Source of the DNA: Dehalococcoidia bacterium
Lineage (GTDB): Bacteria > Chloroflexota > Dehalococcoidia > UBA6926
Assembly: GCA_034422835.1 (NCBI GenBank)
Contig: DAOUJJ010000006.1
Location: forward strand, 64,799 to 128,798
DNA length: 64,000 nucleotides
Direction of reading: 5' to 3'
Shown: piece after piece, positions 4,485 through 42,626 of the stretch
Layout of the letters: every line of letters begins with the position of its first letter
Numbering within the stretch: position 1 is the first letter of the stretch
The notes under the pieces: generated by a model
Seen by the model: the letters and a program-made list of their open reading frames with translations, nothing else
Databases searched by the model: none
What the model was told of the DNA's origin: nothing
Position numbers and translations under genes: made by a program

Positions 4485-6149
4485 ATGGCAACACGCTCTG
4501 AAGAGGAAATCCGCGCCGCGCACGCGGCGTGGGAGGAAAAGACCGCCGGCGCCCGTGAGCGCAAGGAGTCCTTTGACACTGATTCAGTTGAGGGGATCAG
4601 CCGGGCGTATTCGCCTGAGAGCATCCCTAATCTGGACTTTCTCAGTGAAGTTGGATTCCCCGGCGAGTACCCATTCACGCGCGGCGTGCAGCCAACCATG
4701 TACCGGGGGCGGCTATGGTCGATGCGGCAGTACGCCGGATTCGGCACGCCGACGGAGTCCAATGAGCGCTTCCGCTACCTGCTGGAGCAGGGGCAGACGG
4801 GACTCTCGGTGGCCTTTGATCTCCCAACGCAGCTGGGCTACGACTCCGATGATTCGCACTCGCTTGGCGAGGTCGGCAAGGTCGGCGTGGCCATCGATTC
4901 CCTACGCGATATGGAGTTGATGTTCCAGGACATCCCGCTGGACAAGGTCAGCACCTCCATGACCATCAACGCGCCGGCAGCCCTGTTGGTCGCCATGTAC
5001 GTGGCGGTTGGCGAGAAACAGGGGCATGAACCCGCCGCGCTCACCGGAACCGCGCAGAACGACGTGCTCAAGGAATACATCGCGCGCGGGACGTATATCT
5101 ATCCGCCGGGGCCATCATTGCGCCTTGCCGCGGATCTCGTCGGCTATTGCGCGCGGGAGATGCCGCGATTCAACAGCATCTCCATCAGCGGCTATCACAT
5201 GCGCGACGCCGGCAGCACGGCGGCGCAGGAAATCGCGTTCACGTTCGCCAATGCCATCGCGTATGGCGAGGCATTTGTGGAACGCGGCGTCGACGCCGAT
5301 TCATGGGGCCCGCGCGTCTCATGGATTTTCAATACGCACAACAATTTTCTGGAGGAAGTCGCCAAGTACCGGGCGCTGCGCCGCATGTGGGCGAAAATCA
5401 TGAAAGAGCGGTTCGGCGCGCAGGACCCACGGTCATGGATGCTCCGAACGCACACGCAGACCGGCGGCTCCACGTTGACGGCGCAACAGCCGCAGAACAA
5501 CATCGTCCGCGCGGCGTACCAGGCCATGGCGGCGGTGCTGGGCGGCGTGCAGAGCCTTGCGTTGTCTTGCTACGACGAGGCGCTTGGCATCCCGACGGAT
5601 GAGGCGCAGCGCGTTGCCTTGCGAACGCAGCAGATCCTCGCGCATGAGACGGGGGTTGCCGACACCGTAGACCCGCTTGCAGGTTCCTACTTCGTCGAGT
5701 GGATGACCAACAACCTGGAAGAGAAGGCGTGGCAGTACCTGCGCCAGATCGAGGATCTTGGCGGCGCTGTGACTGCCATCGAGAATGGTGTCATTCAGAA
5801 GGAGATCGTGCAGGCGTCCTATGACGTAGCGCAGTCCATCGAGAACGGCGATCAGCTTGTCGTCGGCGTCAACTCATTCACGGACGGCAACGAGGACCAA
5901 TCTCTGCAGGTGTTCCGCGTGGACAACCGCGTCGTCGCGGAGCAGCACCAATCGCTGGAGCGTGTACGCGCTGAGCGGAGCGCGGAGGACGTGACGAACG
6001 CGCTTGAGGCGCTGCGAGGCGCGGCGCGTGGAAACGGCGACCTCATGGAGCCGATATTGGGCGCAGTGCGGGCGTACGCGACGACGGGCGAAATCTCAGA
6101 GGCGCTGAGAGACGTGTTCGGCGAGTACACGCCGCCGGTGGAGGTCTAG
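4485..6149 (+). CDS. Methylmalonyl-CoA mutase family, large (substrate-binding TIM-barrel) subunit; no fused B12-binding domain, 554 aa
   Basis: Strong similarity by eye to the MCM catalytic domain (RQYAGFGTPTESNERF, GLSVAFDLPTQLGYDSDD, FNSISISGYHM, QPQNNIVRAAYQAMAAVLGG). It ends at the typical C-terminus of split-type large subunits. No small B12 subunit gene is adjacent. Confidence 0.9.
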   Translation: MATRSEEEIRAAHAAWEEKTAGARERKESFDTDSVEGISRAYSPESIPNLDFLSEVGFPGEYPFTRGVQPTMYRGRLWSMRQYAGFGTPTESNERFRYLLEQGQTGLSVAFDLPTQLGYDSDDSHSLGEVGKVGVAIDSLRDMELMFQDIPLDKVSTSMTINAPAALLVAMYVAVGEKQGHEPAALTGTAQNDVLKEYIARGTYIYPPGPSLRLAADLVGYCAREMPRFNSISISGYHMRDAGSTAAQEIAFTFANAIAYGEAFVERGVDADSWGPRVSWIFNTHNNFLEEVAKYRALRRMWAKIMKERFGAQDPRSWMLRTHTQTGGSTLTAQQPQNNIVRAAYQAMAAVLGGVQSLALSCYDEALGIPTDEAQRVALRTQQILAHETGVADTVDPLAGSYFVEWMTNNLEEKAWQYLRQIEDLGGAVTAIENGVIQKEIVQASYDVAQSIENGDQLVVGVNSFTDGNEDQSLQVFRVDNRVVAEQHQSLERVRAERSAEDVTNALEALRGAARGNGDLMEPILGAVRAYATTGEISEALRDVFGEYTPPVEV

Positions 6150-6205: not shown

Positions 6206-6232
6206 GGATTCCCGCCTTCGCGGGAATGACGG
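6206..6232. repeat. REP-like palindromic element GGATTCCCGC-CTTC-GCGGGAATGACGG
   Basis: Intergenic, between the mutase gene and the SDR gene. Same core as the other copies. Confidence 0.7.
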
Positions 6233-6265: not shown

Positions 6266-7015
6266 ATGGCAGGACTGTTGGACGGCAAGGTAGCGCTCGT
6301 TACGGGTGGATCACGCGGGATCGGCCGCGCCACGGCAATCGAGTTGGCGGCGAGCGGCGCGGCAGTCGCGGTGAACTATAACGCGAACGCGGACGCGGCC
6401 ACCGAGGTGGTCAATGAGATCACAGGGGCGGGCGGCAAGGCGGGCGCGTACCAGTTCAATATCGCCGACCGCGCGGCGGTTGATTCCCAGATCGACCAGA
6501 TCGTGTCCGACCTCGGACCGGTCCAGATCCTGGTGAACAACGCGGGCGCGACCGCAGATCGCACGCTCAGGAACATGTCAGACGAGCAGTGGGACAGCGT
6601 TATCGAGGTCAATCTGACCGGAACGTTTAACGTCACAAAGAAGGTCTGGAACATCATGGGCGAGGCAGGCGGCGGCCACATCGTCAACATCAGTTCCATC
6701 GTTGGCGAGGCCGGACGGCTTGGTCTGATCAACTATTCAACGGCCAAGGCGGGGCTTTTGGGCTTCACCAAGACGGCCGCGAGAGAGGGCGCGCGCACCA
6801 ACATCCAAGTGAACGCCATCGCGCCCGGGTTCATCGATACGGACATGATTTCCGGCCTGACGCCGGAGATGAAGGAGAACCTCAAGAAGGAGGCCGTTCT
6901 TGGCCGCCTGGGCGAGGTTGAGGAGATCGCGAAGGTCGTGCGGTTCATCGTGAGCGAGGCGAGCTACATGACGGGCGCGACTATCGACGTGAACGGCGGG
7001 ATGTACTACCGCTAG
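6266..7015 (+). CDS. SDR-family 3-oxoacyl-(ACP/CoA) reductase (FabG/PhaB-like), 249 aa
   Basis: TGGSRGIG Rossmann motif, NNAG motif, YSTAK catalytic motif. Confidence 0.85.
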   Translation: MAGLLDGKVALVTGGSRGIGRATAIELAASGAAVAVNYNANADAATEVVNEITGAGGKAGAYQFNIADRAAVDSQIDQIVSDLGPVQILVNNAGATADRTLRNMSDEQWDSVIEVNLTGTFNVTKKVWNIMGEAGGGHIVNISSIVGEAGRLGLINYSTAKAGLLGFTKTAAREGARTNIQVNAIAPGFIDTDMISGLTPEMKENLKKEAVLGRLGEVEEIAKVVRFIVSEASYMTGATIDVNGGMYYR

Positions 7016-33975: not shown

Positions 33976-34203
33976 ATGCCAACGAGCACGGATACAGAGA
34001 TTATCTTCATGGTGCGGGACGATCCTCTTGACGGCGGTTTCAATGCCTCTGCCCTTGGCTACGCAATCCATACGCAGGGCGACACTTTCGACGAACTGCG
34101 ATCCAACGTGCGTGAAGCCTTCGATGTGTTCTTCGATGAAGACATGCCGCGGCCAAAGATCATTCGCCTTCACTATGTGCGAGACGAAGTAATGGCTCCG
34201 TAA
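33976..34203 (+). CDS. UPF0150/HicB-like family small protein, 75 aa
   Basis: GGFNASALGYAIHTQGDTFDELRSNVREAFDVFF resembles the HicB/UPF0150 N-terminal RNase-H-like fold. No adjacent HicA. Confidence 0.45.
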   Translation: MPTSTDTEIIFMVRDDPLDGGFNASALGYAIHTQGDTFDELRSNVREAFDVFFDEDMPRPKIIRLHYVRDEVMAP

Positions 34204-34273
34204 GACTCTAACAAGTCGGCAATACCGTAACTGGCCTCAACATACTTTCCATTTGTCTCCGAGGGGAATTCTT

Positions 34274-36568
34274 ATGACACAAACGCAGCAAGAAGGAACG
34301 CGCATTGTTGGGCGGGGGGTTCAACGCGTCGATAGCGCTGAACGCCTGACCGGCGAGGCCGTGTTCGGCGCGGATCACACCACGGAGGGCACGCTGTACG
34401 CCAAGCTGGTCCGCAGCCCCTACGCCAATGCGCGCGTTCTCAGCATCGATGTCTCAAAGGCCGCGGCCATGCCCGGCGTGCGTGCAATCGTCACGTCCGC
34501 CGACTTTCCCTACATCGCCATGAGCAACCAGGCCGTCGGCGGCGAGATCACCATGACGCCGCGTGATCAGCGGCGGATGCAGATGGCGGAGGACCGCATC
34601 TTCTATCACTGGCAAGCCGTCGCCGCGATCGCTGCGGACGACGTGACGACTGCCGAGGAGGCCGCCGCGCTCGTTGAGGTTGAGTACGAGCCGATTGAAC
34701 CTGTCGTTGACGTGGAGCGCGCCGTTCGGCCTGAGTCATCCCTCGTTCACGATGATCTCTACACGTGGGAGTTCGCCGGGGGGCCGTCCGACAGACCAAG
34801 CAACATAGCTCGCCGCGTTGAGTTTGAGCGCGGCGACGTTGAGCAGGGCTTTGCCGAAGCGGACATCGTCATTGAGAGGACCTTCCGCGGCGGCACCGTC
34901 CACCAGGGATATTTGGAGCCGCAGGCATGCACGGTGGACGTGCGCGAGGACGGCCATCTGACCGTGTATTCATCCAGCCAGATCAGTTTTAACTTGCGCG
35001 ATACGCTGTCCATCATCCTCGGCCTGCCGCAGGACAAGATCACTGTCGTGCCGCTGGAGATCGGCGGCGGATTTGGCGGCAAGGCGGGGCTTGGCATCGA
35101 GTTCGTGACGGCGCTGCTGGCAATGAAGGCTCGCCAACCCGTCAAGTTGGTGCTTGCGCGTGAGGAGGTCTTTCGCGCGTCCGGGCCCACGTGCGCCCAC
35201 GTCATCAATCTCCGCATCGGCGCGATGCGAGACGGCACGGTGACGGCGTTCGACGGCCGCTATCTGCTGGACACCGGCGCGATGACGGGTTTCACACATT
35301 CCGCCACCGCGGCGCTGACCGGCGCATCGCACTACCGCTTCAAGCATCTGCACATTGACGCCTATGACGTTGTGACGAACAAGCCTGTCGCGATGGCCTA
35401 CCGCGCTCCGAGCGGCCCCATCGGCAACTACCCGACCGAGGTCGTGATGGATGAGCTTGCAGAGGAATTGGGGATGGATCCCATCGACCTCCGTCTTAAG
35501 AACGTGACGGAGGAGGGCGACCCGCTCCCCAACAGCCTCAATATGCCGGTCTGGGGCCTGAAGAAGATTCTGCTCGCCGCAAAGGAGCATCCCGCATGGA
35601 CTGATCCCGTGCCGGATGGACACGGTCGCGGCTTTGCGGCGGCGTACTGGGGCGGCGCGACGCTCACATCGAGCGCGGAGATCGTCGTCAACCCGGACGC
35701 GACGTTCGAGGTCACAACCGGTTCAGTCGACCTCACAGGCACGCGCACGACGATGGCGCAGTTCGCCGCCGAAGAGTTGGGCGTGGAGATGGAGCAGGTC
35801 AGCGTCCGCAGCGGCGATACGGACTCCGTCGGCCATACGGACGGGTCGTTCGGCAGCCGCACGACACTCACGACGGGAACCGCCGTGATGCTCGGCGCCC
35901 GTGACGCGCTGGAGCGGCTGCGCGCCGTCGCGGCGGACATGCTCCGCGTCGAACCGGACTTCGTCGACTACGAGAATCAGACATTCACAGCGCGTGATTC
36001 CGATCGGAGCGTCACCCTGGCCGATGCTTGCAAGGCGGCGGTGGAGGCCAATGAGGGCGAGGAGCTGAAGGTCATCAACATGGCAACGGGGCTGCCTGCC
36101 GCGCCAACGTCAGCGGCGTCCATCGCGGAGGTGGCGGTCGACAAGGCAACCGGTCGGACGGAGATCAAGCGGTTTACGATCTTCCAGGACCCCGGCAACG
36201 CGATCAATCCGCTGGCCGTCGAGGGCCAGATGCAGGGCGGCGCGGCGCAGGGCATCGGCTGGGCGCTGTGGGAGGTGTACGACGTCGACGTCGCGACGGG
36301 CATGATCCGCAACCCGAACTTTTTGGACTACCGGATGCCGACGACTGTTGACGTGCCGATGATCGAGCCGGTCATCGTGTCTACGCCGAACCCGAGCGGG
36401 CCGCACGGGGCGCGGGGTGTGGGCGAGATACCCTTGGTCACACCCGTGGGCGCAATCGGCAACGCCATCTACCACGCAACGGGCGTCCGCCTGCACCAAA
36501 CGCCATTCACGCCTGAGCGGGTCTTGTGGGGGCTAAAGGGGTTGGAGGGGGCCACTCGACCAGCGTAG
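34274..36568 (+). CDS. Xanthine dehydrogenase / CoxL-family molybdopterin-binding subunit, 764 aa
   Basis: Aldehyde oxidase/xanthine DH a/b hammerhead and MoCo-binding domains, seen as conserved Gly-rich blocks. ATG at 34274 follows GAGGGG. Confidence 0.9.
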   Translation: MTQTQQEGTRIVGRGVQRVDSAERLTGEAVFGADHTTEGTLYAKLVRSPYANARVLSIDVSKAAAMPGVRAIVTSADFPYIAMSNQAVGGEITMTPRDQRRMQMAEDRIFYHWQAVAAIAADDVTTAEEAAALVEVEYEPIEPVVDVERAVRPESSLVHDDLYTWEFAGGPSDRPSNIARRVEFERGDVEQGFAEADIVIERTFRGGTVHQGYLEPQACTVDVREDGHLTVYSSSQISFNLRDTLSIILGLPQDKITVVPLEIGGGFGGKAGLGIEFVTALLAMKARQPVKLVLAREEVFRASGPTCAHVINLRIGAMRDGTVTAFDGRYLLDTGAMTGFTHSATAALTGASHYRFKHLHIDAYDVVTNKPVAMAYRAPSGPIGNYPTEVVMDELAEELGMDPIDLRLKNVTEEGDPLPNSLNMPVWGLKKILLAAKEHPAWTDPVPDGHGRGFAAAYWGGATLTSSAEIVVNPDATFEVTTGSVDLTGTRTTMAQFAAEELGVEMEQVSVRSGDTDSVGHTDGSFGSRTTLTTGTAVMLGARDALERLRAVAADMLRVEPDFVDYENQTFTARDSDRSVTLADACKAAVEANEGEELKVINMATGLPAAPTSAASIAEVAVDKATGRTEIKRFTIFQDPGNAINPLAVEGQMQGGAAQGIGWALWEVYDVDVATGMIRNPNFLDYRMPTTVDVPMIEPVIVSTPNPSGPHGARGVGEIPLVTPVGAIGNAIYHATGVRLHQTPFTPERVLWGLKGLEGATRPA

Positions 36569-36596
36569 CGCACGAGACCTTCCGAAAGGCAGACTG

Positions 36597-37178
36597 ATGG
36601 CGGATTACACTCTCGATTTTCATGGCACGCAACCATCTTGGCTAGAAGCTAAGCAGGAATTCCTCGACCTTTACCATCGAGCATTAAGGCAGTCCGGCAG
36701 CAAACGCAGATCGCGAATTGACGTTGTTCATGGGTACGGATCAACCGGTGAGGGAGGCGTGATTCGTGATTCTCTTCGAGACTTCCTAGCTACACGATTG
36801 AAGTACCTAGAATATAGGCCGGGTGAAGTCGTGGACAACAATTCGGGGCACACAATAGTAATTCCTCGGCTACCCATACCCGGTTACGAGTACCAGCGCC
36901 CACAAAGATCTCGCGACTCTCAGCATGTTTCGCGAAGTCCTTCAGTTCCTCAGAAAAGTACAGTGCGGCGGGCAAGCAGCAACAGGGTCGTCGAGAACGA
37001 AATCCTAGGCTATTGTTCAGAATCGCGCACAATGCATGAGATTCATCTGCGGCTGAATGGCCGACTCGGACAATCTCAATTGAGTGCATTGGTTTGGTCC
37101 CTAATTGCAGAGCGCAAGCTAATCACCCGAACCAGCAACGGTAAACTTGTATTCCGGAGTCACAATAAATCAACGTAG
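36597..37178 (+). CDS. Smr-domain protein with C-terminal winged-helix-like region, 193 aa (low-GC)
   Basis: LDFHGTQPSWLEAKQEFLDLYHRALRQSGSKRRSRIDVVHGYGSTGEGGVIRDSLRDFL matches the Smr (MutS2 C-terminal) nuclease domain. GC is ~48%. Confidence 0.6.
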   Translation: MADYTLDFHGTQPSWLEAKQEFLDLYHRALRQSGSKRRSRIDVVHGYGSTGEGGVIRDSLRDFLATRLKYLEYRPGEVVDNNSGHTIVIPRLPIPGYEYQRPQRSRDSQHVSRSPSVPQKSTVRRASSNRVVENEILGYCSESRTMHEIHLRLNGRLGQSQLSALVWSLIAERKLITRTSNGKLVFRSHNKST

Positions 37179-37303
37179 TGGATTTCTACGGTGGGGTGCA
37201 TGAATCGACGGCCTTGTTTCGATGACGAGACGCTGGATTATTACCGCGAGTTGTTTGCGGAGGGGTAGGCTCAGAGCTGCCATGGGCAGCTAAGGACTTC
37301 TGG

Positions 37304-37383
37304 ATTCCCGCTTTCGCGGGAATGACGAGGCGGGGAGCCTACTCCTCGTCTTCCTCCGCATCATCATCCAAGATTTCGGCGTC
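37304..37383. repeat. 80-bp direct repeat copy A: REP palindrome plus duplicated gyrA 3' end (last 14 codons + stop)
   Basis: 77/80 identical to 37741-37820. Copy A lacks the rest of gyrA (stops after 3 codons upstream). Confidence 0.85.
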
Positions 37384-37515
37384 ACCGCTGTGACCTGTTT
37401 TCCAGCACTGTGATAGAGTGGTTGCGCACATTTGACGCCATCGTAAACGAGAGCATAACCGCGGGAAATCTGGTTGCTCCATTAGGCATACCGAGCTAAA
37501 GGAAGGAGCATAACG

Positions 37516-37740
37516 GTGCCGGAAGAGCCCCTGGGCTACGTTGATCTGACGCTCAAATACGAGTTTGAGGAAGAACAGTGGATTGGAGTTTGCCTCGAAC
37601 TCAGCACGAGCACATTCGCCGATACGCTCGATGAGGTACAGGACGACCTAACGCGACTTGTCATCGAACACCTCAACCTCTTGGAAGACGCCGGCGAAAG
37701 AGAGCGATTCTTCAAGGAGCATGACATCTCTTACCACTAG
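37516..37740 (+). CDS. HicB/UPF0150-like small protein (74 aa) lying exactly between the two 80-bp direct repeats
   Basis: YVDLTLKYEFEEEQWIGVCLELSTSTFADTLDEVQDDLTRLVIEHL resembles the HicB N-terminal domain. The stop codon abuts repeat copy B. Low GC. Confidence 0.45.
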   Translation: MPEEPLGYVDLTLKYEFEEEQWIGVCLELSTSTFADTLDEVQDDLTRLVIEHLNLLEDAGERERFFKEHDISYH

Positions 37741-37820
37741 ATTCCCGCTTTCGCGGGAATGACGGGGCGGGGAGCCTACTCCTCGTCTTCCTCCGCATCA
37801 TCATCCAGGATGTCGGCGTC
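37741..37820. repeat. 80-bp direct repeat copy B (genuine gyrA 3' end + downstream REP palindrome)
   Basis: Partner of copy A at 37304-37383. Confidence 0.85.
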
Positions 37821-40631
37821 CGCATCATCCTCGCCGTCGAGGATTTCTGCGTCTGTGTCCTCGCCCTCAATCAGCGCATCGTCCTCAAGCGGGGCGTCGT
37901 CGTCCGGCACAATTTCTACGATGCTCTCGGACGGTTCGTCGGAGATTTCGGCGGTTGATTCCTCAGTGGTCTCCGCCTCTGCGGCCTTTGCCCTGCCGTT
38001 TCTGCGGCTCTTGGCGGATGTCTTTGTCTTTGCGCCGGCTTTGGCCTTCGACTTCGCGCCGTTCTTCTTACCGGAGCCGTTCTTTGCCTCCGGCTTGGGG
38101 AGTTCCTCTTCGGGCTCCGGGAACTGCGCTATCGCGACGACTACATCATCCTGCTCAAGGCGCATCACATGGACGCCGCTGGTGTCTCTCCCACGCGTGG
38201 GCCGCACATTGTCGAGAGTGGTGCGTATCACGATGCCCTTCCTGGAGATGAGCATGATCTCCTCGTCGCGCTTGGCGGCGGCGAGGCCCACAATCAGGCC
38301 GGTGTTCTTGTGGCGATCACTCCGCACCTTGAACGTGGCGACCCCCATGCCGCCCCTGTTGCGGAGCGGGTACCCGTCGGTCTGGGTCCCTTTCGGCGTT
38401 TCGACAACCGCTCCGGTGCCCATGCGCGTGCTCTTGCCATAGCCACGGGCAGAGATTACGAAAAGGTACTTCTCCGGGTCTGCCATAACCGCGCCAACGA
38501 CGTTGTCTTCCGTGCCTCGCTTGCCGAAGCGGATGCCGCGCACGCCGCCGGACGTTGCGGATGCAACTCTCAACGCGTTCGTCTCGAATCGGATAGCGAG
38601 ACCTTGCTCGGTTACGAGAATGACCTGGTCTTCCTCCTTTGCCAGGATGACGCTGACAAGATCGTCACCCTCTTCCAGATCCATCGCCTTCTTCCCAGTG
38701 CTGCGGATGCGGACGAAGCGCTCCAGGGGCGTTCGCTTCACCTCGCCCTTGCGCGTGGCGAATACGAGGTAATCGTGTTCAGAGAGATCAGATGCCGCCA
38801 TAACGGTCGTCACTTGCTCGTTGGGCGCCAAGGCGCTGCCCTGGAACAGGTTGGCGACGGGGATGCCGCGCGCCGTCCGTGACGCCTCCGCCGGCAGGTC
38901 AAAGCACCTGAGCGTCGTTACGCGGCCCCGGTTTGTGAAGAACAGCAGCGTGTCATGCGTGTCACAGACCAACAGGTGTTGAACGATGTCCTCTTCTCGC
39001 GTGGTCACGCCGGTCACGCCCCTGCCGCCCCGGTGCTGCCGCCGGTACGCGGACGCCAGCACGCGCTTGATGTAGCCGCGCTGGCTGATGGTGACGACGA
39101 CCTCGTTGTGCGGAATCAGATCCTCGCGGCGAACCGCGCCGAGTTCGTTCTCGTCAATCTCGGTGCGGCGCTCGTCGCCGTGCTTCTCCTTGAGCTCCTC
39201 GATCTCCTCACGAACGACGGTCGTGATGCGGGTCGGGTCGGCAAGGATGGACTCCAACTCGGCGATGCGCTCACGCAGTTCCTCAAGTTCTTCCAGGATG
39301 GCCTGGCTCTCAAGAGCGGCGAGACGGCGCAGCTGCATATCGAGGATCGCCTGCGCCTGCCGTTGTGACAGCGTGTAGCGCTCGATCAGCGTGATGCGGG
39401 CGGCGTCAGCAGACTCGGCGTTGCGAATGACCTCAATGACTTCATCGAGATTGTCCAGAGCGACGCGAAGCCCCTCCAACACGTGGGCGCGGTCCTGCGC
39501 GCGGCGCAATTCATAGCGTGTGCGGTTGATAACAACATCACGCCGGAAGCGGATGAAGTGGTGGATGATCTGCCGGAGCGGCAGGACCTGCGGCTCTCCG
39601 TCCACCAGCGCCAGGGCGTTGATGGAGAAGGAGGTGCGCATGGCCGTGTGTTCAAAGAGATTGTTGAGAACGATGTGGGCGGCGGCGTCACGCCGCAGTT
39701 CAATGACGACCCGCAGCCCATCGCGGTCCGATTCATCTCGAATCTCGCTGATGCCGTCCAGCCGCTTGCTGCGGACGAGATCGGCCATCTTTTCGACAAG
39801 CGCCGCCTTGTTGACCTGATAAGGAAGTTCAGTGACGACGATCTGCGAGCGTTGGTTGCGCCCTTCGATCTCCTGGATCTCGGCCCGCGCCTCGATGATG
39901 ACGCGGCCGCGGCCGGTGGCGTAGGCGCTGCGCACGCCCTCCGTGCCGCGGATGATGCCCTGGGTGGGGAAATCCGGTCCCTTGATGAATTGATGCAGCT
40001 CATCGAGCGTGGCATCGAACTCGCCGCCGCCCGGCGTCTCGCGCCAGCGTTCGATGGCGAACAGGATGGCATCGCAGACTTCAGTCAGATTGTGGGGCGG
40101 CATGTTTGTCGCCATGCCGACGGCGATGCCCGCCGTGCCGTTGACCAAAAGGTTGGGAATGCGTGCCGGCAGGACAACCGGCTCACGCTCCGAACCGTCA
40201 AAGTTCTCCGCAAACGCGACGGTCTGCCTGTCGATGTCGGTAAGCATCTCCTCCGCGATAGAGGCCAGCCGCGCCTCCGTGTAGCGCATGGCAGCGGGCG
40301 GATCGTTATCGACGGAGCCAAAGTTGCCCTGACCGTCAACAAGCGGATAGCGCAGCGAGAACGGCTGGGCAAGGCGAACAAGGGCGTCATAGACCGGCGA
40401 ATCGCCGTGCGGATGGTACTTGGCGATGACATCACCCACGACACGGGCGCTCTTGCGGTAGGCGGTGTTGCTGCGCATCCCCTGTTCATACATGGCGTAG
40501 AGGACACGGCGCTGGACGGGCTTGAGTCCGTCTCGAACATCCGGCAGGGCGCGCGAGACGATGACGCTCATCGCGTAGTCCAGATACGCCTCGCGCATCT
40601 GGCGTTCAAGGGCAACGGAGCGTTCAACCAT
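37776..40631 (-). CDS. gyrA: DNA gyrase subunit A
   Basis: Active-site Tyr region ([10 protein letters not shown]), GyrA-box (QRGGRG) in the C-terminal beta-pinwheel, acidic tail. ATG at 40631 sits 9 nt after GGAGG. Confidence 0.95.
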
Positions 40632-40755
40632 GAAGCATCGCCTCCATCCCGGGCCGACGGGCAAATCAGGCGCTAAGAAACGTCGGAAATCCTATTTGAT
40701 TCGTGCGCCCAGTCTAGCATTTTTGGGGTGGAAATGCATCACATATACGGGTCGG

Positions 40756-41165: not shown

Positions 41166-42626
41166 TCAGTCGCGCCGGATACCATCTCGCCGAAGTTTCG
41201 CTAGCAGTTCCTCTTGCGTTCCCGTGCCTTTCGTCGAGTTGCAAGCCTGACACAGTAGTTGCAGGTTGGCGATGTGGTCAGTACCGCCCTTTGCGCGGGG
41301 TACGACGTGGTCGATGGTGAGATTGCGATACGGGAACAACGTTAAGCATCCGCTACAATGTCCCTCTTGCGCTCCGTACAGGTGACGCTTGTTCGCGTCC
41401 ACATTGTACGGCGGGATGCTTCCCAAGTCCGTCCGTCTGGGAACGTCGGTGCGATGATTGACTCTCAGTGAAGTGAATCCCAACTCATTGCCGAGCCGCA
41501 TCTTGACCAGTTCGTGGGCCTTTGGCGATACGTCTATGCCTACCCACTTGCGCTTCTCGCCATCTTTGAAGCTCTCTGCGGCCACGCACGCCGTCGCGCA
41601 ACCACAGAACGGATCGAGTACTACATCGCCGGGATCAGAGGACGCTGCAATGATGCGCTTTAGCAGGGCAAGGGGTTTCTGTGTGGGATACCCCGTGCGC
41701 TCCGAGTGATTGCCCGTTAGCGCCGGAATATCGTCCCACAGATTCGAGACGGGTTGGCCCTTGCTCTCATTGAGATACACCTTGCGCTCAGGGACACCTG
41801 CCCTGCTTTCGGGGATGCCCGCGCCGCTCCGAGCCTGTCTGATTCGTTTGTCTGCATCGAGTTCCATCATTCGCGCCTGGCTGTAACGCCATGTCCGCAC
41901 ATGACCACGAAACTCATATTGATACCCTCCCCCCGACAATCCGCCCGTATGCAGGGGGGCAGTACGGTAAGGCCCGCGCCCATCGTTGTCATTGTGACGA
42001 TATGTCTTCTTTACGTATTCAGGGTCAAGAGGACGGCGCGGGCCATTCCAAATCCCCTTGCCATCTTTCGCATAGAAGAGCAGCGTATCGCAAACACGGC
42101 CAAAGCCTCGGGCGTCGTTGTGAGAGCCGTACCGCCGCCACACAACCTCATTGCGAAAGTTGCCCTGCCCAAAGATAGAGTCCATGACCTGCTTGAGATA
42201 GTGACTGGCCGTGTCGTCGCAATGCAGGTAGATGCTGCCCGTCGTCTTGAGGACGCGCTTCATCTCAAGCAAGCGGACGGCCATCATAATCAGGTACGCC
42301 TTCATACCCTTGCCATGCGACAGACCGGCGGCGTCAATCACGCTGTAGAGCGCAGGCTCCTTCTCCGCAATCTCGCCGTGCCATGCCACGTCCAAATCGT
42401 CGAGCGTCCAAATGTCCTTGAATTCCGCGCCCTCTGCCGGACTGCCGATTGGCGCTCCGTAACTCTGATTGGAGTTGAACGGAGGATCGAGATAGATGAG
42501 GTCTACTGTCTCGCTGTTCATACCCCGCAGAATGTCGAGGTTGTCACCCGTCCAGATAGTACGATTCTTGAAGTTGGGGGCTGCCATCAGCGCGCCCCAT
42601 CCCGGGGGCGCGCGACGATGCGGCAT
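41166..42626 (-). CDS. DNA methyltransferase (N6-adenine/N4-cytosine, beta-class: DPPF ... FxGxG) fused to C-terminal HNH endonuclease domain, 486 aa
   Basis: Motif IV IYLDPPFNS precedes motif I VVLDPFCGCATA (beta-class order). The C-terminus CSGCLTLFPYRNLTIDHVVPRAKGGTDHIANLQLLCQACNSTKG is an HNH motif. GC is low relative to flanks. An alternative start at 42587 (MAAPNF...) is possible. Confidence 0.85.
   Translation of the reverse strand: MPHRRAPPGWGALMAAPNFKNRTIWTGDNLDILRGMNSETVDLIYLDPPFNSNQSYGAPIGSPAEGAEFKDIWTLDDLDVAWHGEIAEKEPALYSVIDAAGLSHGKGMKAYLIMMAVRLLEMKRVLKTTGSIYLHCDDTASHYLKQVMDSIFGQGNFRNEVVWRRYGSHNDARGFGRVCDTLLFYAKDGKGIWNGPRRPLDPEYVKKTYRHNDNDGRGPYRTAPLHTGGLSGGGYQYEFRGHVRTWRYSQARMMELDADKRIRQARSGAGIPESRAGVPERKVYLNESKGQPVSNLWDDIPALTGNHSERTGYPTQKPLALLKRIIAASSDPGDVVLDPFCGCATACVAAESFKDGEKRKWVGIDVSPKAHELVKMRLGNELGFTSLRVNHRTDVPRRTDLGSIPPYNVDANKRHLYGAQEGHCSGCLTLFPYRNLTIDHVVPRAKGGTDHIANLQLLCQACNSTKGTGTQEELLAKLRRDGIRRD

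Follow-up and report, generated by a model that had tools for sequence, protein, structure and literature searches.

A duplicated gyrA 3′ end, a truncated hicB gene and a stand-alone Smr gene in the XDH-gyrA spacer of a Dehalococcoidia bacterium

The spacer between the XDH-like gene and gyrA

The DNA analyzed here, referred to as the window, comprises 64,000 nt of a Dehalococcoidia bacterium (GCA_034422835.1, contig DAOUJJ010000006.1, positions 64,799-128,798 of the forward strand), and all coordinates below are window positions. We focused on the spacer in which an XDH-family gene and the convergent gyrA gene enclose a stand-alone Smr-domain gene (Smr193), two copies of a direct repeat that hold a repetitive extragenic palindrome (REP) and the 3′ end of gyrA, and, between these copies, hicB′, a truncated antitoxin gene of the HicB type (Table 1). 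Apart from hicB′ and Smr193, the interval from the XDH-like gene to gyrA has only one other open reading frame (ORF), a pseudogene remnant of 17 codons, and no recombinase ORF was found there. The GC content was ~0.51 from 36597 to ~37750 compared to ~0.64 in the flanks.

Table 1. Features of the XDH-gyrA spacer and its two anchor genes, in window coordinates (L numbers denote syntenic loci of relatives)
Feature	Position	Strand	Remarks
XDH-family molybdopterin oxidoreductase large subunit	34253-36568	+	Conserved left anchor of the variable spacer; NCBIfam XdhA-like
Smr193, stand-alone Smr-domain protein	36597-37178	+	Outside the repeats, upstream of copy A; Pfam Smr
Metalloprotease-like pseudogene remnant (Peptidase_M10-type)	37218-37268	+	Last ~17 codons and stop; gene of 344-475 aa in relatives
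Spacer with small palindrome GCTGCCATGGGCAGC	37269-37299	+	Alignment with L166 and L167
Repeat copy A	37300-37383	+	REP palindrome 37304-37323; dead gyrA stop and last 14 codons 37339-37383, minus-strand sense
Novel illegitimate junction 37383/37384	37382-37385		gyrA codon −15 meets the upstream edge of the hicB leader; TC microhomology, 2 nt
hicB leader	37384-37515	+	Hairpin and T-run at the 5′ edge (37381-37402), conserved GTGATAGAGTGG motif, ribosome-binding site AAGGAAGGAG
hicB′, truncated HicB-type antitoxin gene	37516-37740	+	Codons 1-74 of 114; no hicA
Repeat copy B	37737-37820	+	REP palindrome 37741-37760; functional gyrA stop and last 14 codons
gyrA (DNA gyrase subunit A)	37776-40664	−	Conserved right anchor of the variable spacer; ORF; Pfam DNA_topoisoIV and DNA_gyraseA_C on orthologues

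A sequence-only reading of this locus had described two direct repeats (37304-37383 and 37741-37820, 77/80 identical), each carrying a REP palindrome with the gyrA stop and last 14 codons, of which only the second copy is joined to gyrA. Our repeat search confirmed this description and extended the repeat to 84 nt. It is a single family of two copies, 80/84 identical and 437 nt apart, which formally amounts to 1.19 copies of a 437-bp unit. On the plus strand, each copy consists of CT(G/A)G, the 20-nt perfect palindrome ATTCCCGCTTTCGCGGGAAT, the 15-nt spacer GACG(A/G)GGCGGGGAGC, CTA, and 14 codons; CTA is the gyrA stop read on the minus strand, and the codons that follow it are the acidic gyrA tail. 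Copy B alone continues into gyrA, which is intact in the window. Copy A is a non-functional, dead pseudo-tail, and a minus-strand 47-aa ORF at 37339-37482 represents this tail joined to antisense leader sequence.

The REP-type palindrome occurs in 8 copies in the 64-kb window compared to 0 expected. The family ATTCCCGCnnnnGCGGGAAT, with conserved CTGG and GACG flanks, was located at positions 6208, 11574, 11660, 12515, 14308, 37304, 37741, and 42896. Since the repeat shares just ~30 nt, and no more, with the other REP copies of the window, the remaining ~52 nt represent a true duplication of the gyrA 3′ end. The hairpins are strong and lie between convergent genes, and a role as terminator or insulator would be plausible; an Rfam search yielded nothing relevant. 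As in known REP elements, we found a short perfect palindrome with conserved flanks that is multi-copy, extragenic, and situated between convergent genes, with a ~30-nt shared core, and one copy marks a deletion end-point, where the junction position is the sole indication of a role of REP in the deletion. The family differs from them in being confined to the closest relatives: it was found in L166, L168, L171, and L172, in mutated form in L167, and was absent from the L081-L085 and L169 loci. No RAYT (TnpA-REP) transposase gene was found in the 64 kb, no search aimed at it having been made. Two further ideas about this region were rejected. The REP shows no attC-like structure and no array is present, which disfavors an integron cassette, and an inverted repeat around the stop codons of the protease-like tail and gyrA is meaningless, as both proteins end in EE before the stop and the same effect arises by coding alone in L082 and L083.

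We next compared the two repeat copies with the single copies of relatives in an alignment (A7) with L166, L167, and L168. The left flank of copy A, gctaaggacttCT[A/G]G, also stands before the one REP-gyrA copy of L166 and L167, while the left flank of copy B, ..TCTTACCACTAG, is identical to the hicB′-REP junction of L168. The gyrA-tail parts of copies A and B are each other's closest relatives, with common window-specific states, including substitutions and an indel state, that have no counterpart in L167 and L168. Judged against these outgroups, each copy has ~2 derived substitutions; copy A has private substitutions at 37302 and 37371.

Downstream of copy A, the sequence reads ..GATTTCGGCGTC followed directly by ACCGCTGTGACC.., and from 37382 onward the window is homologous to the hicB units found in L081, L083, and L084. 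The junction lies inside gyrA codons and not at the REP. In L170, the same hicB leader starts 7 nt past the XDH stop. From these comparisons, 37383/37384 is the only truly novel joint in the window.

The hicB′ and Smr193 genes

As the sequence-only reading had noted, a low-GC segment of 357 nt (37384-37740) between the repeat copies carries a 74-aa ORF. Its TAG stop falls in the first bases of copy B and is given by CTAG at the left edge of the REP; the ancestral CTAG is seen in L166, L167, L168, and copy B, and without it the ORF would continue for ~230 codons antisense to gyrA. The leader is 78-83% identical to the hicB upstream regions of L081, L083, and L084; its 5′ edge at 37381-37402 is a terminator-like site, and the conserved GTGATAGAGTGG motif is a putative promoter. 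A protein search yielded 20 homologues, nearly all the close ones being 114 aa long and alignable to window residues 1-74 only, and an exact look-up of the 74-aa product returned no record. By these alignments, the ORF is the N-terminal domain of a 114-aa HicB-type antitoxin that is cut after codon 74 exactly at the REP.

The proposal that this ORF is HicB-like held for fold and partner gene but not for the curated sequence models. No Pfam match at E≤1 was obtained for the 74-aa ORF or for the 114-aa relative P0002, and none in NCBIfam or PADLOC; a distant relative, P0019, matched Pfam HicB_lk_antitox at E 0.0017, under the cut-off. An AlphaFold2 model of the 74-aa product (18 sequences; predicted local distance difference test score, pLDDT, 90.9) showed a beta-beta-beta-alpha-alpha order. 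Its best folds in the PDB were the UPF0150-type 2yzt and the putative antitoxin 3k6q, at probability 0.99 with a weak E of 0.25, followed by double-stranded RNA-binding domain proteins. Full-length relatives are directly followed on the 3′ side by a ~78-aa ORF that matches Pfam HicA_toxin (29.6 and 30.8 bits against a cut-off of 27 in L081 and L169). Such a hicA lies directly downstream in L081, L083, L085, L169, and L170, L085 carrying a precomputed HicA_toxin match. Among 80 more distant metagenomic loci of the family, at least 54 have a same-strand HicA relative whose end lies 100-500 nt downstream. Because hicA directly follows the full-length relatives and accompanies at least 54/80 metagenomic loci, the family is assigned to HicB by predicted fold and partner, and the window copy is an orphan: tblastn of the whole 64-kb window, the search for hicA that had been suggested, detected neither hicA nor the 3′ part of hicB.

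HicA is an mRNA interferase toxin and HicB its antitoxin (PMC11594946). In the solved HicAB systems, HicA is bound by the HicB/UPF0150 N-domain, a dsRBD/RNase-H-like fold with a three-stranded sheet packed on a helix. The full-length relatives resemble these type II toxin-antitoxin (TA) systems (PMC11594946) in forming a two-gene hicB-hicA operon with the HicA ORF over the Pfam cut-off, and the 74-aa product has the predicted beta-beta-beta-alpha fold of the N-domain. In contrast to known HicAB, the window retains 74 of 114 codons and no hicA, the antitoxin gene comes first, the C-terminal 40 residues of the full-length relatives have no recognizable ribbon-helix-helix or helix-turn-helix domain, and the Pfam, NCBIfam, and PADLOC HicB models fail to recognize the family. 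It is therefore an unannotated HicB family, invisible to these three resources, whose partner is a recognizable HicA, and the window copy illustrates a TA module decaying to an antitoxin-only stub.

hicB′ keeps the whole conserved domain, a strong ribosome-binding site, and the conserved leader; P0020, a natural homologue of 73 aa, stops at the same point. Compared with L168, it shows 7 synonymous and 4 non-synonymous differences, giving a ratio of non-synonymous to synonymous rates (dN/dS) of 0.14; the probability of at most 4 non-synonymous among 11 changes under neutrality is ~0.006, which hints, on these small counts, at continued constraint as an orphan antitoxin. Limited evidence thus suggests purifying selection on what may be either a decaying relic or an orphan antitoxin domain.

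The Smr-domain identity of Smr193 was likewise upheld (Pfam Smr 28.2 bits against a cut-off of 25.7, E 2.2e-6). The protein comprises an N-terminal Smr domain, a disordered S/R/Q-rich linker (residues ~99-127), and a C-terminal domain of ~60 aa; the disordered insert is specific to the window lineage. Its sequence profile matches the Smr domains of MutS2 and N4BP2 in the PDB, and the N-domain of its AlphaFold2 model gave fold matches to MutS2 Smr, YdaL, and N4BP2 (probability 1.0). Both the DxH and the HGxG motif are retained, with TLDFHG and VVHGYGSTGEGG invariant among homologues. The C-terminal domain is a probable, weakly supported winged helix: the model shows a helix-helix-beta-hairpin order at pLDDT 51-67, with weak matches to the Hop2 winged helix (E 0.97) and the rpc34 winged helix (probability 0.28), and the paralogue Smr159 matches the TBPIP/Hop2 winged helix at a weak E of 0.008. 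Smr193 therefore shares sequence, fold, and DxH/HGxG motifs of its N-domain with stand-alone Smr proteins (E. coli SmrA/YdaL and SmrB) and the MutS2 Smr domain, and differs from them in its C-terminal partner, the probable winged helix after a disordered linker. It scores far under the NCBIfam SmrA and MutS2 equivalog cut-offs and belongs to a very small family, with tandem paralogues in L166 and L167. This small family, with a Smr domain and a probable winged helix, is flagged for annotation.

PADLOC gave no defence-system match for Smr, HicB, or HicA. An association of the Smr and HicB-like genes had also been put forward for checking. A Smr relative was present in 0 of the 80 metagenomic HicB-family loci, and among close relatives L083 and L084 do carry Smr and hicBA in one spacer. 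Thus, despite these two loci, there is no general co-occurrence, and a functional link between Smr and HicB was rejected.

Spacer alleles of relatives

The syntenic relatives, numbered as L loci, were obtained via protein look-ups of HicB and Smr. A scan of genome contigs with gyrA gave relatives of ≤53% identity among the matches listed and was uninformative for an empty-site test, and a search with the C-terminal 200 aa of gyrA found no relative nearer than 74%. Two Logan contigs from unrelated sequencing runs, L171 (SRR13587050) and L172 (SRR31984834), are 100% identical to the window over 34097-37324 and 36238-37325, respectively, so that this strain or allele recurs elsewhere. Each of the two stops within the REP of copy A, and the contig of L166 (L166-type strain, SRR33343654) likewise ends inside its REP.

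All syntenic loci have the XDH-like gene on the left and the convergent gyrA on the right. The XDH-like gene (NCBIfam XdhA-like, E 5e-134, under the equivalog cut-off) is 84-94% identical in nucleotides and syntenic in L082, L083, L084, L167, L168, and L170, and homology with all relatives stops at ~36551. Its end (36551-36568) is a lineage-specific extension, ..GLEGATRPA, that is common with L166 and absent from L170 (..QLEG), L168, and L083; therefore, the left boundary of the Smr cassette is the ancestral XDH stop codon. gyrA is 82-91% identical in relatives, with a hypervariable acidic C-terminal tail that is not alignable to L082 and L083. Because the relatives encode 927-929 aa, the true gyrA start probably lies downstream of 40664.

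Between these anchors, the contents differ markedly. L169 (~80% nucleotide identity to the window) has a 114-codon hicB (hicB114) and hicA, then 28 nt to the gyrA stop, with no REP. In L170 (XDH 94.5%), the XDH stop and 7 nt are followed by the hicB leader, full hicB, and hicA, where the contig ends. L082 (gyrA 82.8%, XDH 84%) carries hicBA and P423, a metalloprotease-like gene. L083 and L084 (XDH 84-85%) carry Smr153, P475, hicBA, an orphan P475 tail, and P432. L168 (XDH 92-94%, hicB′ 95%) has P344, hicB′ of 74 aa, and REP, then gyrA, with no copy A. L167, a 1.85-Mb circular contig (~90%), has Smr193, a degraded protease tail, Smr159, gctaaggacttCTAG, REP, and gyrA, thus one repeat copy and no hicB, and L166 (96.8%) has Smr193, the protease tail, Smr159, gctaaggacttCTAG, and REP. 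In the window, the order is XDH, Smr193, protease tail, short palindrome, gctaaggacttCTGG, REP, gyrA tail (A), hicB leader, hicB′, REP, gyrA tail (B), and gyrA.

These alleles bear on how the locus was first read. L167 provides the empty-site allele that was to be looked for in relatives. The joint between hicB′ and REP, ..TCTTACCAC followed by TAGATTCCC.., is the same in L168 and the window; because L168 has it without copy A or any second repeat, this joint is older than the duplication. hicBA is the older occupant of the spacer, resident in L169, L170, and L082-L084, and the window hicB is a truncated remnant of it and not imported cargo, the candidate role that had been proposed. The Smr gene fared similarly as candidate cargo bracketed by the repeats. 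It lies upstream of copy A, outside the repeats; Smr193 occupies the same position with the same architecture in L166 (P0021, 97% aa identity) and L167 (~90% nucleotide identity), and in L083 and L084 a Smr gene 35-36% identical in aa stands there, right after XDH. Because Smr sits after XDH in these four loci, it belongs to the variable spacer as a resident gene and has no connection with the repeat. The XDH-gyrA spacer is probably a recombination hot spot, with several alternative cassettes among related genomes.

The protease remnant is 84-88% identical by blastn to the 3′ ends of P475 in L083 (5750-5794) and of its counterpart in L084 (5751-5792), translating to ..FDDETLDYYRELFAEG before the stop compared to ..YYDEETLDYYRELFAE in P475; Pfam Peptidase_M10 matches the full-length protease genes of relatives. 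At the position of 37269-37299, L166 and L167 instead carry Smr159 (~480 bp), a second Smr gene, with the gctaaggactt flank of the window behind it. This tandem Smr159 (785-1287 in L166, 6657-7159 in L167; Pfam Smr 4e-11) lies between the protease-tail remnant and REP, and the window has only a 13-nt palindromic filler, GCTGCCATGGGCA, in its place at 37276-37288. The absence of Smr159 from the window most likely reflects a deletion. Over 37269-37299, L171 and L172 match the window at 100% identity.

The hicBA unit was also observed outside this spacer, in L081 and L085. Units of ~850 bp lie at 5856-6707 in L081, 5857-6689 in L083, and 3062-3651 in L085, in unrelated gene contexts, with a major facilitator superfamily transporter gene adjoining in L081 and L085. 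Those of L081 and L083 are 85-87% identical and have the same left edge, ACATAATCACCGCGG.., including a terminator-like palindrome, which suggests that the module moves as a discrete cassette; the units in L081 and L085 have no flanking repeats. In L083, a ~111-nt direct repeat (5730-5840 and 6704-6815, 80-90% identical; L084 alike) brackets an intact hicBA and consists of the last 22 codons of the metalloprotease-like P475 plus 43 nt downstream; alternatively, these may be paralogous protease-gene tails. A mobile hicBA that generates long target-site duplications was considered for this repeat and rejected, as none occurs in L081, L082, L085, L168, or L169; it survives only within the more speculative idea given below.

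Origin of the arrangement

The explanation that we favor, with moderate confidence and as the simplest history, is that the window holds a Smr-type and a hicB′-type spacer side by side and that the 84-nt repeat is a by-product of their joining. The older resident is the hicB-hicA module, found intact beside gyrA in L169 and L170 and also carried by L082-L084. In the REP-bearing clade, as indicated by the shared derived junction, a REP copy would have taken the place of hicB codons 75-114, the whole of hicA, and the spacer as far as a point 15 nt short of the gyrA stop. The alternative cassette of Smr193, protease remnant, and Smr159, as seen in L167 and L166, ends in the same REP-gyrA, with one REP-gyrA copy (the L166 contig ending in REP) and no hicB. 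Finally, the Smr cassette, broken 45 nt inside gyrA, would have been attached to the hicB′ leader at its 5′ edge by one illegitimate join; the remainder of the exchange would have been homologous, in XDH and/or REP-gyrA. Three routes could lead to this product: a Smr-allele fragment anchored in XDH whose free end was joined to a hicB′ chromosome just past the XDH stop, as in homology-facilitated illegitimate recombination (HFIR); the mirror image, anchored in gyrA; or an unequal crossover or single crossover of a 437-bp circle. Under all three routes, the shared right end (REP and gyrA tail) would be present twice because both cassettes were kept. Since gyrA is essential and only products with a complete gyrA 3′ end survive, the event would resemble an insertion that "restores" gyrA. 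Recombination between the repeats could in turn delete hicB′ precisely, yielding an L167-type allele.

HFIR has been proposed for the orphan immunity gene arrays in type VI secretion system (T6SS) clusters of V. cholerae and for Rhs loci (PMC5361080), and in E. coli single-crossover integration gave 109-950 bp duplications of the homologous segment (PMC3240628). In the window, a homologous flank combined with a microhomology joint was found, with XDH and gyrA flanks 90-94% identical to both parental-type alleles; the junction evidence is compatible with HFIR and not exclusive to it. In favor of this explanation, two independent Logan assemblies match the window exactly as far as the REP of copy A. 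Several observations weigh against it. The junction is seen in one assembly only, no genome closer than ~97% covers it, and L166, L171, and L172 all stop inside the REP; hence, the direction and age of the event were inferred. The preceding deletion and REP replacement were deduced from end states. The alleles do not follow the order of XDH similarity (L166 > L170 ~ L168 > L167), and several histories would be possible. Both copies have the window-specific gyrA tail, which needs either a donor and a recipient that belong to one species-level population or subsequent gene conversion. The dN/dS of hicB′ rests on 11 differences.

An intrachromosomal route would instead begin with an ancestor of the type XDH-hicB′-REP-gyrA, in which the 437-bp spacer (hicB leader, hicB′, REP, and gyrA tail) was duplicated in tandem, after which a Smr cassette replaced the first hicB′ by homologous allelic replacement or deletions. 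It accounts for the formal 1.19 copies of the unit, for a junction at the position expected of a tandem joint running from XDH stop+7 to gyrA codon −15, and for the window's own tail sequence in both copies; we nevertheless regard it as unlikely, because at least two events would be needed compared to one, two hicB′ copies occur in no relative, and the second step would be limited to 84 nt of right-hand homology. Less probable again is an old duplication ancestral to the window, L166, L167, and L168, with copies homogenized by gene conversion. The derivation of the relatives under it is similarly improbable, namely that recombination between repeats deleted hicB′ to give the L167 type and that the left part was replaced to give the L168 type. 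Recombination across the 84-nt repeat would indeed yield exactly the L167 sequence, the allele distribution is independent of XDH similarity, and a constrained hicB′ could preserve the arrangement. Yet, the substitutions and indel state that copies A and B share, absent from L167 and L168, would then require repeated conversion of a non-functional copy, and the origin of copy A would be left unexplained.

The locus had also been read as the footprint of integration or duplicative recombination at the REP. The footprint of duplicative recombination stands; nothing points to site-specific integration, given the lack of a recombinase and a junction inside gyrA codons. A small mobile or integrative element, inserted site-specifically at the REP/gyrA 3′ end with Smr-wHTH (winged helix-turn-helix) and HicB-like cargo and with the repeats as attL and attR, seems to us the least credible origin of those weighed. 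Direct repeats that hold a gene 3′ end are typical of integrative islands, GC is low, and an empty-site allele exists in a relative. However, only 357 bp with a truncated gene lie between the repeats, there is no integrase, the repeat is local and not element-borne, and the content is the remnant of an older resident module, hicBA. Furthermore, Smr lies outside the repeats at a conserved position, hicB′-REP-gyrA occurs in L168 without a second repeat, and low GC is common to the orthologous spacers of relatives. Also very improbable is an assembly artefact, in which two co-existing strains, one of the Smr type and the other of the hicB′ type, would have been fused into one chimeric contig at the REP-gyrA repeat common to both. 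Both parental alleles do occur in related metagenomes, and the junction is in a single assembly, with the Logan contigs stopping short of it. A graph chimera, however, would switch within shared sequence, and here the junction joins unrelated sequences with 2 nt in common; copy A, moreover, has the private substitutions noted above.

The joining of two spacer alleles would thus most resemble, by analogy, additive cassette displacement by one-sided homologous recombination. As in the orphan immunity arrays and C-terminal displacement of T6SS, Rhs, and contact-dependent growth inhibition (CDI) loci (PMC5361080), a conserved flank would anchor the incoming cassette, whose opposite end is joined illegitimately; the old protective gene, an immunity gene in those loci and an antitoxin gene in the window, persists without its toxin; and conserved segments are duplicated. 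The locus differs from those arrays in that the toxin was lost earlier, via a REP-associated deletion before cassette joining, and in that REP and the 3′ end of an essential housekeeping gene were duplicated, and no part of a toxin gene; it is a single step, with no array. The whole is an ordinary rearrangement scar with a decayed TA module, and all of its components are of known kinds, so that the current understanding of HicAB, Smr, and REP systems is unchanged. It provides a clean natural example of how an aberrant exchange between spacer alleles can produce a short duplication of an essential gene 3′ end without a mobile element, and it cautions against reading an integrated island into the combination of direct repeats, low GC, and small stress-type genes.

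A more speculative idea, which we consider doubtful, is that toxin-less HicB N-domains are selectively retained as anti-addiction or immunity factors against incoming HicA and that the XDH-gyrA spacer collects such orphans by additive cassette displacement; in a bolder variant, the ~850-bp hicBA unit would be mobile as a small circle, using single crossovers at homologies of ~100 nt. For selection, hicB′ was kept in two lineages after toxin loss, with the low dN/dS given above. A second HicB-like gene lies at 33976-34203 (plus strand), between argJ and the XDH-like gene, and is 73% identical in aa to the product of L082 2990-3262, downstream of which stands a Pfam HicA_toxin gene; that hicA is missing from the window. 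The XDH gene of the window is thus flanked by two toxin-less hicB-type genes, which we count in favor of this idea, together with the repeat-bracketed hicBA of L083 and L084 as a second case with a duplicated neighbor-gene 3′ end.

Further features were observed around gyrA. Its 3′ end (37776-37960) contains an internal 27-33-nt tandem repeat at 37785-37853, and an antisense ORF over this end (37759-38442, plus strand, 227 aa) is a low-complexity artefact. Just upstream of gyrA, at 41166-42626 on the minus strand, lies a gene for a 486-aa N6/N4 DNA methyltransferase with a C-terminal HNH motif, which is kept in L082 (N6_N4_Mtase and HNH). Because L167 and L083 have different genes at the methyltransferase position, the other side of gyrA is also variable.

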